From Minisyncoccota bacterium (GTDB lineage Bacteria; Patescibacteriota; Minisyncoccia; Minisyncoccales; Minisyncoccaceae): a stretch of 64,000 nt of DNA. Shown here one piece after another: positions 1-6,118 of the stretch. The stretch lies in contig JAQWEU010000002.1 of assembly GCA_028704755.1 (NCBI GenBank), positions 1 through 64,000 on the forward strand, written 5' to 3'. A program made the translations under genes and the position numbers. The notes under the pieces are model-generated. The model ran no database searches. It had not been told where the DNA came from and saw nothing but the letters and a program-made list of their open reading frames with translations. The number at the start of each line of letters is the position of its first letter. Positions within the stretch are counted from its first letter, which is position 1.

Positions 1-1231
1 GGTTATAGAGCACTTATCTCCTTCTGGCGTGCAGTCTGGAAGTATTCCTGCATTAGAATCAGTACTAGGAACATCCTTGTCTAATCCTAAGAGAGTTACT
101 TCACAATATTTCAGCTGGACCGTCTTGACCCTTCCTTCTACTTCTGCCCCTTCTTCAGAACAGGAAGTATTGTTATAAATATATAATTTCACCTTCATGT
201 CCTTGAAATAGTTCTTATCCCTCTTATAGATCGTTATATAATTCATCTCTCCCCCTAACTTGCTCAATCTCTCATCATTCCTGACACTTGGGATATCCTT
301 ATTGAATGCTGCACATTTTCCTATTATGCTGTCATCTTCTTGGGCTGCGATTCCGAAATAATCTATCCCTTCAGCTTTTTTCGAATTCACTATGTCGATC
401 GAATTGACATTGTCCTTGTAATTCACTAGGTCCAGATTCGTATATGTTCCCTTTAGGCGCAAGGGGAGATAGAGGTACGGAGTATAATTATCCTGTTCAT
501 AAAGAAGTGCCCCATCTACCTTATCGAGTATCACCAATCCTGGATTATCATTATACTGATCAGGATTCTTCGGATCCCTCTGTCCATTTCCTCCTAATAA
601 AGGAACATTGATGGTAACCTCTTCTCCAGGCTTCAAGGATTGGGAATAATCGTCATTATTCGGATTATCTGCATAGAACACCGTTGCCGGCCCACCATTG
701 AACCCTATCACAGCCTGTAATCCATAATACTTCTTTATTGTCAATTTCCCATTATCTTTTATATCCTGGTTGGGAATGGTCATCTCCACTGTTCTTATAG
801 TCTTCTCCGGTTCAGTTTCAGTTTTTGGCTTGATGATCTCCTTCAGGATACAGGATTGCATCTTAGCACAGTCACGCTCTACTATATCAGTAGGAAAATC
901 GCTATTTATCGTTTTCAGGATCAATAGAGGAGAAAGTAATACTGCTAGCCCTACGATAACTCCTATCAGATCGTTCTTCAGTTTCGAAAAAGCCGCTGGG
1001 CTGCCCCCAGAGGTCAGGAGATCTAATCCAGAAAAGGTTACCTTCACGACAGCTATGGCCACTAATACTGCCACGATCAATGCATAGAAATACGTAGCAT
1101 AGTTCTCAACAGTGCTCTCATCGGTCAGAGGACTTATACCAGGGAGATCAAGATAAGTAACAGCAAATACCCGATCCAGGCAGATCGCAGAAAATATTGC
1201 TATTGATAATAGATAATATCTTTTATGCATC
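1..1231 (-). CDS. Partial (runs off the window edge) secreted/membrane protein with an N-terminal signal peptide plus two hydrophobic helices (pilin-like module) and a large extracellular domain. Not in the ORF track because it has no stop within the window
   Basis: Manual translation of the minus strand from ATG at 1229-1231: MHKRYYLLSIAIFSAICLDRVFA... then TM YFYALIVAVLVAIAVV and TSGGSPAAFSKLKNDLIGVIVGLAVLLSPLLILKTIN. The frame stays open to position 1 (>400 codons). It sits 17 nt from the upstream gene stop, so it is operonic. Confidence 0.5.
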
Positions 1232-1247
1232 GTGTTTCTCTTATATA

Positions 1248-5000: not shown

Positions 5001-6118
5001 TCGCTACAGATACACCCATTCCTTATATACTCCTTCAGGTTATTCACTATTCCATGCAGCCCATCGTTCTCACAGTTGCCCCAGTATCTACATCTCAATT
5101 CTGGAGAGACATAACCCTTTTCAACCGTATTATCGCCTGGATCATCTACTGGATCACCCCTGGAGTCAGTCTTGGCAGAATCATTCTTATTATGTAGATC
5201 GTACCAGTTCTGCTCATCCCAATCATGATAATTCACGCTCAGAGCTGTCTTTCCTTCTTTATTAATATCATAGCTTCCAGCATAATCAGGATTGAAATAA
5301 CCGTTAGAATTAGGAGAGCTAGAAGGGTCAGCATCCCAATTCACTATATCTGGATTTCCCAAAGGAGAATCTTCGTCATTGTTTCCCGGCTTCCCGCACC
5401 TATAATTCCCATCATTCAGATAAAGCATCTTATGCTCAGTCGCCTTAAGGAGCTCATTAATACAGATCCGGAAATCGATTCCCTGATATTCATCCATTTC
5501 TGTAATGTACCCATCTCCATTCTTATCGATCGCATTTCCGTACTTATCATACAGATAGCATATTTCTTCCGTATGAGGGCCTGCTGTCCCGATCTTTACT
5601 GAAGAATAGTTATATGCCTGAGTAGGGGAGGTAGATACTGCATTCAATATCGATTCTATATTTGCCCCTATCGGGATCTCCGTATACTTGACCAATGGCC
5701 TATCCACATTCTTATTAACATCTCCTCCCATCTTTTCCACTTCGCTTATCAAATCATTAAGATTCATTTCTAGTAATTGAGGATTGATGGCTTTGAGCAT
5801 CACTGTTGAACCAGCCAGGATAGAAAGTCCTAGGAATAGGCCTGTAATGCTTCTTTTCGCGTCAGTCACCTGAGCAGCGTTCGCCCCAGCTGTCATTATT
5901 TGGAATCCTTGATAAGTCAACCCTACCACAGCTATTACCACCCCTATGACAACGCTCATATTCAATAAATAGACAAAAAAATCGACTCCGAATACAGGAG
6001 CTACTCCGATGACAGGATATGTCTGAGATAATTGCAAGGCATCATTAGCAAAAACCATACCGCTTGCCGATATGCCCAAAAAAGAAAATCTTAATATATT
6101 CTTTGAATAGTTCATCAT
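2027..6118 (-). CDS. Giant (1363 aa) cysteine-rich secreted protein. It has an N-terminal signal peptide plus two-helix pilin-like (VirB2/TrbC-like?) module and a large extracellular domain. Candidate T4SS-associated adhesin or effector
   Basis: Uninterrupted 4.1-kb ORF. N-terminus: signal (GISASGMVFA), hydrophobic helix (VVIGVVIAVVGLTY), then TAGANAAQVTDAKRSITGLFLGLSILAGSTVMLKAIN. Many Cys clusters (CDNCDPFIGCCGG; CDCETCTNSSDCHCVAWTKECGCIHYACTDTCSACKPSSQKTCFACAK). No recognisable catalytic motif. Confidence 0.7.
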   Translation of the reverse strand: MMNYSKNILRFSFLGISASGMVFANDALQLSQTYPVIGVAPVFGVDFFVYLLNMSVVIGVVIAVVGLTYQGFQIMTAGANAAQVTDAKRSITGLFLGLSILAGSTVMLKAINPQLLEMNLNDLISEVEKMGGDVNKNVDRPLVKYTEIPIGANIESILNAVSTSPTQAYNYSSVKIGTAGPHTEEICYLYDKYGNAIDKNGDGYITEMDEYQGIDFRICINELLKATEHKMLYLNDGNYRCGKPGNNDEDSPLGNPDIVNWDADPSSSPNSNGYFNPDYAGSYDINKEGKTALSVNYHDWDEQNWYDLHNKNDSAKTDSRGDPVDDPGDNTVEKGYVSPELRCRYWGNCENDGLHGIVNNLKEYIRNGCICSETNERTTDLWAVYDPEYVGCEGTAGPIGVSFYCHHKFGCGVDWCYDNCDPFIGCCGGPRGRSTSCQYIPQNLFNNIYDSSNPYYQHDPCLKRKSMDCMREFMNIIVYGDVNTKLECSAQETKQGPANPIEMGWSCNDFVYNQQPEMVQARKTEFLLAYYQRLISFKKYYQNRMADLEKIEKYMMSDKRRELLSKGELQQMQTPAKERYSFDQSELGLTFPYETGAYRKRFNCAVYEDPNKLTDKAVYEDDEYRHNMFTCTWNEDQYDVTQRDNKLVRIKTGDLISNLHVDKSMERTGPNSEALADDEEDRRICSRGELETLQGKNALFNNVKSSCLGGYEKVPTLEGVPAAMFDISKRRFVQWKDDIYNEGGYSYLDKSEKYWTGEDMAVDGDPLTFYALSKPAEVVDPYYTGRDKMPYYFKPGFIDYSQYSENSAIDTEVGTERGFLLPSLIPVGQLSYHTKIYAKQMIRTIDRTLEQMEAAIIAFDNIANVYVEGGAAEGGGDYSGISSISKDTGIFSNGGATSTGCDCETCTNSSDCHCVAWTKECGCIHYACTDTCSACKPSSQKTCFACAKVTRYSKFLTPSYTDYYGKNNSEPVVEDVINDELPGKLKLIVHNMSCPDGRNKPYLGLKAFLRPINTQYEKVVSDIVVKFAWDGNEEVFVSSSASDMKDVVADDILIVENLANGKKKQYGPVSHDLWRGQVDIKDLLAVGNNEIRFTIQDYWASHISSSDIYIHVKRKLPPLPCSCMSNAIPEYSPPEGYTVAECNAWDRDLNEERSCQDYTKDIVVYLEAAREDEGCPCHEKPVMYFYPQQEQDIKVKLDYKGQIIADYPKYSDLLKGWSITAYPDGRIINHEDGQEYNYLFWEGIPDKKIDFDMTEGFVVRGEETKDFLQKKLAEIGLTPKEYNEFIVYWYPKMKDNKYNLIHFAGKEYTDVAPIDITPKPDSLLRVFMVYKALDSYMEVRPQDFKTFERKGFSVVEWGGTEEK

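Follow-up and report, generated by a model that had tools for sequence, protein, structure and literature searches.

We analyzed a 64,000-nucleotide (nt) stretch of contig JAQWEU010000002.1 (positions 1 to 64,000, hereafter the window) from the Minisyncoccota bacterium assembly GCA_028704755.1. At its left end lie two genes, A and B, which encode large secreted proteins that begin with a similar pilin-like module and continue into unrelated ectodomains, close to the genes of a type IV secretion system (T4SS). Coordinates are those of the window throughout, and both genes are read on the minus strand. Gene A (1..1230) is a partial coding sequence, translated here as 410 amino acids (aa), that has its ATG at 1230 and continues past position 1, so that no stop codon is reached within the window. 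The public record of its product (P0014) is labelled 'partial', which indicates that the source contig ends there. Gene B (2027..6118) is an open reading frame (ORF) of 1363 aa. Both products are described below as putative modular VirB2-like pilins.

The two proteins share a common start, composed of a Sec-type signal peptide ending in VFA, a short conserved TY-L/P-x-x-G stretch, a hydrophobic helix of about 25 residues, a loop of Gly/Ala/Ser and Lys/Arg residues, and a second hydrophobic helix that terminates in LK-T/A-I-N-S/P. In A, the signal peptide (aa 1-23, nt 1162-1230, minus strand, ending ...RVFA) precedes a pilin module (aa 24-113, nt 892-1161, minus strand) with the loop TSGGSPAAFSKLKND and a second helix ending ...LKTINS, after which 297 aa of ectodomain fall within the window (aa 114-410, nt 1-891, minus strand). 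In B, the corresponding parts are a signal peptide (aa 1-24, nt 6047-6118, minus strand, ending ...MVFA), a pilin module (aa 25-118, nt 5765-6046, minus strand) with the loop TAGANAAQVTDAKRS and a second helix ending ...LKAINP, and an ectodomain (aa 119-1363, nt 2030-5764, minus strand). Hydropathy confined the strongly hydrophobic segments to the first ~111 aa of each protein. The initial annotation, made from the sequence alone, had placed A at 1..1231, assigned it an ectodomain of ~350 aa and counted more than 60 Cys in the ectodomain of B. These figures are replaced by the start codon at 1230 with both genes on the minus strand, by the 297 aa present in the window (the full-length homologue of A, P0015, has 487 aa in total, and a second homologue, P0016, has 639 aa), and by 42 Cys in B, all of which lie within the ectodomain.

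Comparison of A and B bore out the view that their N-terminal modules are related and their ectodomains are not. The N-termini are 25% identical over 76 aa (BLASTP with compositional adjustment, E 9e-8), and the Smith-Waterman score of the two modules was 109, as compared with 30.5 ± 5.4 in 2000 composition-preserving shuffles (z 14.5), none of which reached the observed value. Past residue ~115 no relation was found, the best BLASTP match between the two ectodomains having an E value of 2.3. A fusion created by gene calling or assembly was considered and rejected, as the long genes recur in a cultured relative whose genome is complete, as well as in dozens of metagenome-assembled genomes (MAGs) that are independent of one another.

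Next we analyzed how widespread this architecture is, both in related T4SS loci and, as the initial annotation had proposed, in metagenomes. We scanned all ORFs of 80 virB4 loci with an iterated hidden Markov model (HMM) of the module; the loci came from species-representative genomes, were all Paceibacteria-like and encoded VirB4 proteins of 57-96% identity. Among the 50 complete ORFs with an N-terminal module, 45 encoded proteins of 244-1496 aa and the other five encoded proteins of 119-133 aa. The ectodomains of the module genes formed at least 20 clusters without detectable mutual similarity, the largest of which was the B type, found in 26 loci. An exhaustive search of 1.84 billion representative proteins with an HMM of the module returned 26,467 matches at E<=1e-3, of which 1105 also satisfied E<=1e-10. 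Among the best 150 of the 26,467 matches, 85 carried a single N-terminal module, and 72 of these 85 were at least 200 aa long; another 61 carried 2-16 tandem modules, often followed by another domain. The best-150 list is skewed towards the query and towards multi-module proteins, and these proportions are not population estimates. The few fused domains recognized by Pfam were beta/gamma-crystallin, the related I36 inhibitor fold and dockerin (one related module protein carries Dockerin_1), together with the enzyme domains Peptidase_C39_2 (E to 8e-19), Peptidase_M23 (1.7e-19), NlpC/P60 and Peptidase_C70. The enzyme-bearing proteins derived from loci L043-L046 and L066 and from metagenomic representatives. 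The module is therefore a promiscuous N-terminal unit that occurs on domains of both binding and lytic-enzyme type.

Two further kinds of module-related proteins were observed in these searches. The tandem-module proteins, here called poly-pilins, include P0042 (1775 aa, 16 modules), P0026 (1147 aa, 11 modules), P0019 (820 aa, 8 modules) and P0020 (555 aa, 6 modules). Many of them end in a non-module domain of 130-440 aa, and they are topologically consistent, each module running out-in-out. In addition, some virB4 loci encode proteins of 766-1114 aa with a weak match (E 1e-4 to 1e-12) to the two-helix part only, located at the extreme C-terminus. Each of these genes lies just upstream of a normal N-terminal-module gene (L039 2-2329, L042 746-3046, L048 3-1115, L059 3-3347, L061 2-2809, and L082 2937-5639).

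The module had initially been read as a hairpin of the VirB2/TrbC pilin type, and this reading is upheld by matches across relatives, whereas A and B taken alone score below the curated cut-off. Specifically, A matched PF18895 (T4SS_pilin) at aa 48-107, scoring 20.4 bits as a whole protein and 24.2 bits when its module was taken by itself; the match of B (aa 56-109) reached 13.6 bits. In an alignment of 12 modules from A, B, their homologues and the paralogues of Minisyncoccus archaeiphilus, three matched PF04956 (TrbC/VirB2) and 10 matched PF18895 at E<=1e-3. At this threshold, PF18895 was also matched by 41 of the 50 complete module-bearing ORFs of related loci and by 65 of the 72 long metagenomic representatives, the best with an E value of 8e-13. 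On the basis of these similarities, we assign the module to the VirB2/TrbC superfamily, an assignment that is clear at the family level. The sequence and the module alignment show a signal peptide, two hydrophobic helices and a short basic loop, in keeping with hydropathy, and the AlphaFold2 (AF2) model of B places the helices at residues 45-76 and 81-111, with a predicted local distance difference test (pLDDT) score of 60-72. The conserved set of pilin features comprises a mature N-terminus of the form (Y/W)-P-x-hydrophobic-G-G, the short Lys/Arg-containing loop and an I-N-P-x-L tail, of which I111-N112-P113 of B are invariant among 12 homologues. Past this tail follow a variable linker of ~25 residues and then a large, acidic, Cys-rich ectodomain without further membrane segments. 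The short canonical pilins of 119-133 aa found in a few related loci have the same YP-x-F-G-G mature N-terminus and stop 5-15 residues beyond the I-N-P-x-L motif. The long proteins therefore consist of a complete pilin with a C-terminal extension rather than of a pilin fragment.

Two other explanations for the module were weighed against these data. The resemblance of A to B could in principle reflect nothing but a shared composition of signal peptides and transmembrane segments, or a fusion artefact, a view favored by the sub-threshold Pfam scores of A and B and by a profile search against PDB sequences that yielded noise only. We judge it very improbable in light of the shuffling and compositionally adjusted BLASTP results and of the PF18895 matches among the relatives. 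The term 'pilin-like' used in the initial annotation would also permit the sense of a type IV pilus (T4P) or type II secretion pilin or pseudopilin with a large C-terminal module. T4P are encoded by Patescibacteria, and modular T4P pilins exist. However, the class III motif G|F/M-T-L-x-E is absent from the first 60 aa of both A and B, the proteins have a Sec-type signal peptide and two helices instead of one, and the Pfam matches are to T4SS_pilin and TrbC rather than to N_methyl or T2SSG, so that this option can be set aside almost entirely.

Genes A and B are embedded in a tightly packed array. Directly upstream of B lies the first gene of the array, encoding a small membrane protein of 130 aa (tm130; 6122..6514, minus strand) without an NCBIfam match; a homologue adjoins the B-type gene in 21 related loci. 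Between A and B, a gene at 1248..2015 (minus strand) encodes a secreted protein of 255 aa with nine Cys and without the pilin module. The intergenic gaps of 3, 11, and 17 nt indicate that tm130, B, the 255-aa protein gene and A form one operon. Divergent from this operon, a gene at 6570..8732 (plus strand) encodes a polytopic membrane protein of 720 aa with about six hydrophobic segments in aa 14-340, according to hydropathy, and a long hydrophilic C-terminal part. It had no match to VirB6/TrbL in Pfam or NCBIfam, its position is conserved, and we regard it as a candidate analogue of extended VirB6 proteins.

The presence of adjacent T4SS-like machinery, also put forward in the initial annotation, was corroborated by three consecutive plus-strand genes between 12263 and 15224, 6-9 kb away. 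They encode a VirB3-like PrgI protein (12263..12679; PF12666, E 8.7e-7, 29.8 bits against a cut-off of 27), a TrsD/TraC-like protein resembling the N-terminal domain of VirB4 (12685..13431; NCBIfam VirB4_plasma E 6.8e-10 and TrsD E 1.6e-5, both scores being under the curated cut-offs), and a VirB4-type ATPase (13443..15224; P-loop_TraG 3.7e-29, AAA_10 and CagE_TrbE_VirB). The M. archaeiphilus orthologue of the second of these is recorded with PF26593 (TraC-like). An SPFH/Band-7 protein is also encoded in the T4SS neighborhood. The gene dnaA lies at 21627, 6.4 kb past virB4, and the minimum of the cumulative GC skew at 20-22 kb coincides with yidC, khpB, dnaA, and dnaN (20000-24500). The distance of the T4SS and the pilin operon from the replication origin is thus no more than ~20 kb, in agreement with reports on many Patescibacteria. 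No Pfam match to a relaxase or coupling protein was found among the window ORFs of at least 120 aa. An MPF-FATA-like T4SS near dnaA without a relaxase or coupling protein agrees with the pattern described for the phylum (PMC12102498).

The closest cultured relative is M. archaeiphilus, an obligate parasite of the methanogen Methanospirillum hungatei (PMC12281837). Its T4SS locus is perfectly syntenic with that of the window, and its protein MNSN_01240 is the closest homologue of B, at 68% identity; a database protein identical to B is a hypothetical protein of a 'Candidatus Pacebacteria' MAG. The M. archaeiphilus array extends past the point where the window contig ends, in the order B (1494 aa), 255-aa protein, A (487 aa), followed by proteins of 517, 875, and 350 aa. 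Five of these genes begin with the module, and the gene of the 255-aa protein alone does not. Between the window and M. archaeiphilus, identities were 96% for VirB4, 89% for the TrsD-like protein, 79% for the 255-aa protein (in the same position), 75% for PrgI, 68% for B, 68% for tm130, 67% for YidC, 56% for A (against the 487-aa gene) and 56% for the VirB6-like protein. VirB4 is unusually conserved among the compared genes, and A is among the fastest-evolving. The idea that A and B both diverge far more rapidly than the other genes of the locus was discarded, because B is average, VirB4 is exceptional and only A lies at the fast end.

The ectodomains of A and B had no match in Pfam, NCBIfam or PDB sequences. 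A beta/gamma-crystallin assignment for A/D/E/F-type ectodomains, considered on account of YxxxxYxG-like motifs, was unconfirmed by Pfam and is not claimed for A. B shows strong conservation over 12 homologues: more than 200 alignment columns are invariant, and Cys residues are numerous. Following the module, B contains the segment DKNGDGYITEMD (5492..5527, minus strand; aa 198-209), which fits the pattern DxNxDGxIxxxD and, going by this motif, may be a Ca2+-binding loop of EF-hand/dockerin type. Its residues D198, N200, D202, G203, T206, and D209 are invariant among the 12 homologues, and its match to EF-hand_5 was weak (E 0.26). AF2 modeling of aa 1-700 (13 sequences) gave a mean pLDDT of 36, with only the hairpin moderately confident. 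In the model of aa 600-1363, only the last two domains were usable, and pLDDT was 25-40 over aa 1-1000. The first of these domains (2774..3121, minus strand; aa ~1000-1115) is modeled as a jelly-roll beta-sandwich of the sugar-binding or receptor-binding kind. It is also inserted in the A-family protein P0016 (aa 1006-1113 of B against aa 456-564, E 2e-8), which shows domain shuffling within the pilin-module array. The second is a C-terminal alpha/beta domain (2030..2581, minus strand; aa ~1180-1363, AF2 pLDDT 66-89), which was present in 7 of 12 family members by alignment and had no Pfam or PDB match; the sole clear structural match was an uncharacterized protein of the giant virus Terrestrivirus (A0A3G4ZNZ8, Foldseek BFVD E 6.9e-10). 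B ends in ...VVEWGGTEEK (FSVVEWGGTEEK), with neither an LPXTG sortase signal nor a hydrophobic segment past aa 111, and the A homologue P0015 ends in ...KKFFIVPYNR. The 255-aa protein had no Pfam or NCBIfam match. It is 39% identical (E 7e-41) to the last ~180 aa, at the C-terminus, of a B-like pilin-module protein from another genome, P0013. This Rosetta-stone fusion suggests that B and the 255-aa protein work together, and the latter is probably a partner of B.

The homology of the modules, their predicted topology, their genomic context, their conservation and their prevalence are results of the analysis, and they frame the following proposal. We infer that A and B serve as modular pilins of the VirB2/TrbC type in a chromosomal, origin-proximal T4SS of a Paceibacteria bacterium close to M. 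archaeiphilus, and that they display their ectodomains to the host, a reading to which we give an even chance. Following this proposal, Sec would insert the protein and the signal peptide would be removed after ...VFA. The hairpin would then span the membrane with both ends outside, which would leave the ectodomain extracellular. The VirB4/VirB3/VirB6-like machinery would recognize the hairpin as a handle, extract it from the membrane and incorporate it in a short pilus-like polymer or add it to the end of one. Handling of the hairpin by the T4SS would explain why the pilin features have been retained. In pilins of the TraA/VirB2 type, such as those of F and T pili, the C-terminus faces outwards on the pilus surface, so that a C-terminal domain could in principle be displayed. 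In this way the ectodomains would face the surface of the host cell, where they would probably serve in recognition and adhesion, with B acting together with its 255-aa partner beside A and further paralogues. In other lineages, the same handle would carry cell-wall hydrolases and cysteine peptidases.

Several observations weigh against this proposal. A and B each score under the gathering threshold of PF18895 (26.6 bits), and no solved VirB2 or TraA pilin was retrieved when the module profile was compared with PDB sequences. The bulk of the B ectodomain was neither modeled nor matched, and the adhesin role suggested for B draws on its two predicted C-terminal domains and on analogy. B evolves no faster than YidC between the window and M. 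archaeiphilus and hence gives no sign of diversifying selection. No short pilin that could form a shaft was found in the window or in two M. archaeiphilus loci. For steric reasons, a VirB2-type helical lattice cannot accommodate an ectodomain of ~1240 aa on each of its subunits, and B could therefore only be a rare subunit, or one located at the tip or base. Furthermore, pilus formation by any Patescibacterial T4SS is without experimental evidence (PMC12857230).

The size of the ectodomains and the lack of a demonstrated pilus also favor the view that the hairpin, although derived from a pilin, now serves only as a two-helix membrane anchor. Both A and B, like the related proteins, would then be ordinary surface proteins (adhesins or enzymes) tethered to the cytoplasmic membrane of a monoderm cell, without extraction or polymerization by the T4SS, and their linkage to it would reflect co-regulation at the host-contact site. 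The joining of the module to many unrelated domains, as expected of a generic anchor, and the variable tether-like linker of ~25 aa after it fit this account as well. On the other hand, the YP..GG N-terminus, the loop and the INPxL tail are kept in both short and long forms and over 26,467 representatives, although a generic anchor would have no need of them. The linkage of module genes to virB4 is tight and consistent, and simpler anchors are open to monoderm bacteria. A mere anchor is possible, although rather unlikely in our view. Alternatively, A and B could be precursors, which a protease would cut behind the I-N-P-x-L...LP tail after Sec insertion, yielding a canonical polymerizing pilin of ~90 aa and an ectodomain that either leaves the cell as a secreted effector or remains bound non-covalently. 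Such processing would suit the short pilins, which stop exactly where the extension of the long forms starts, and it would have a precedent in RP4 TrbC and Ti VirB2, which undergo C-terminal trimming before cyclization. Moreover, the many metagenomic proteins with 2-16 tandem modules are most easily read as polyproteins and hint at polyprotein processing, and cysteine peptidase domains of the C39 type occur among the fusions. However, neither a conserved cleavage motif nor a dedicated peptidase (S26/TraF-like) was found among the locus ORFs of 120 aa or more. Known C-terminal trimming involves tens of residues rather than hundreds, and the tail and linker are conserved with the family, unlike a disposable junction. 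We consider cleavage into a canonical pilin unlikely. For display by the T4SS, the reading that we prefer, a broader version can be conceived, in which the VirB2-like hairpin would be a general 'display/export tag' in Paceibacteria and possibly in much of the candidate phyla radiation (CPR). From modular and poly-pilin precursors, the T4SS would assemble a pilus-like structure of mixed composition that contains lipid. At the interface with the host, which here is the envelope of a methanogenic archaeon, this structure would carry or release adhesins, lytic enzymes and Ca2+-binding beta-domains. We put this broader version forward tentatively and hold it to be somewhat doubtful. If it were true, variable ectodomains would set the host range, and the system would represent an undescribed mode of protein presentation by a T4SS, with the first class of T4SS pilins that carry grafted functional domains.

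In their organization, A and B resemble the classical T4SS pilins VirB2 (Ti), TrbC (RP4), TraA (F), and TrwL (R388), as they combine a signal peptide, two hydrophobic helices and a short basic loop with a predicted topology in which both ends are outside, and are encoded with VirB3-, VirB4-, and VirB6-type genes; the PF04956 matches among the aligned modules add to this likeness. Sequence similarity of the module to these pilins is marginal, with no PDB pilin found by profile search. Classical pilins have mature forms of 70-130 aa without an extra domain, whereas A has at least 410 aa and B has 1363 aa. Furthermore, classical pilins belong to diderm envelopes with VirB5, 7, 9, and 10, which were not seen here, and some of them are cyclized. 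A similar design principle is known from modular T4P pilins, such as PilB and PilC of Streptococcus sanguinis with their vWA or lectin modules, in which an N-terminal polymerization or anchor module is joined to a C-terminal adhesive module displayed by the filament. Those pilins have an unrelated fold and differ from A and B in having a single N-terminal helix, a class III signal peptide (a motif absent in A and B) and the PilB/PilC/PilD machinery. The likely role in target-cell contact is shared with the VirB5/CagL tip adhesins and the PrgB/PrgC LPXTG adhesins. A and B are not separate soluble tip proteins as VirB5 and CagL are; they have no sequence or fold relation to either group of adhesins, and they use a VirB2-like hairpin as anchor instead of sortase and LPXTG. 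PrgB-like adhesins were undetectable in Patescibacterial T4SS loci in a study that treated VirB2 as a small protein (PMC12102498), which leaves a contact role open for the ectodomains.

Arrays of VirB2-like pilins have been described for the T4SSs of Patescibacteria, namely in Southlakia epibionticum (SEML1_0006-0019) and as the 'Sec-secreted array' of Nanosynbacter TM7x (Wang et al. 2023, PMC10633639; Quinonero-Coronel et al. 2025, PMC12102498; review PMC12857230). These T4SSs are essential in S. epibionticum (PMC10633639, PMC12102498, PMC12857230). The locus in the window resembles these arrays in its PF18895 family membership and its position beside VirB4, PrgI/VirB3, and TrsD; it is likewise chromosomal and near dnaA, with no relaxase or coupling protein detected nearby. 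Divergent module genes are arranged near virB4, in tandem or one non-pilin gene apart (B, 255 aa, A), and the 25% identity between the A and B modules matches the average of ~25% reported for the arrays (PMC12102498). On the other hand, the published arrays were described as consisting of small pilins, whereas the members described here have 350-1496 aa with a large C-terminal ectodomain and no short pilin in the locus. In addition, the closest cultured relative here parasitizes an archaeon and not an actinobacterium. In PMX.108 (M. archaeiphilus) and PMX.50, the five secreted proteins of unknown function with the highest expression have been reported to include T4SS-pilin-domain proteins, and such domains were called host-adhesion related (Kuroda et al. 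2024, PMC10936435). The tables of that study include a 1230-bp gene annotated with PF18895. The Pam pilus of CPR (preprint 10.64898/2026.03.03.709456) was also considered and found not to be relevant, being a different system based on donor-strand exchange.

The fusion of a pilin module to large ectodomains had initially been taken for an undescribed family. This has to be narrowed, since the Pfam family, the Patescibacterial T4SS and the VirB2-like arrays have been published (PMC10633639, PMC12102498, PMC12857230). The long modular architecture, its prevalence in Paceibacteria and the poly-pilins are undiscussed in the open-access full texts that were searched, although a description elsewhere is possible. 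A and B are members of a known family in a known system, with an architecture that is undescribed in that literature. A pilin domain beside the T4SS itself is unsurprising, and the value of the observation lies in the regular joining of VirB2-type pilins to ectodomains of large size and great diversity, in a lineage of which one archaeal parasite is in culture. The T4SS is essential in the one genetically tractable Patescibacterium and conserved near the origin across the phylum, and its role has been called 'completely unknown' (PMC11665869). Should a whole class indeed have its pilin genes fused to large surface domains, among them sandwiches of sugar-binding-like type, crystallin-like domains and cell-wall hydrolases, these genes would be obvious candidates for host recognition and attack, and the pilin arrays would gain a concrete, testable function. 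The A and B orthologues of M. archaeiphilus (56-68% identical), which grows in a defined co-culture with M. hungatei, make work on localization, processing and binding feasible. HMM-based surveys of 'VirB2 homologues' pool short pilins, modular pilins and poly-pilins.

Outside the T4SS locus, the window encodes several further proteins. Two paralogous secreted proteins of ~1167 aa (44581-48087 and 48781-52284, both on the plus strand) are 39% identical and carry an N-terminal PG_binding_1 domain, which is also found, together with T2SS-T3SS_pil_N, in a protein of 780 aa (32126-34468, plus strand). These proteins recall the highly expressed proteins with peptidoglycan-binding domains that were proposed to act in host attachment (Kuroda et al. 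2024). Finally, a protein of 1362 aa (55257-59345, plus strand) contains two lamin-tail domains (6e-23), an ORF of 129 aa (59562-59951, plus strand) matched the terminase small subunit family Terminase_2 (8.9e-8), and an ORF of 151 aa past the T4SS block (18880-19335, plus strand) matched Terminase_4 weakly; the lamin-tail protein and the terminase-like ORFs may be phage remnants.

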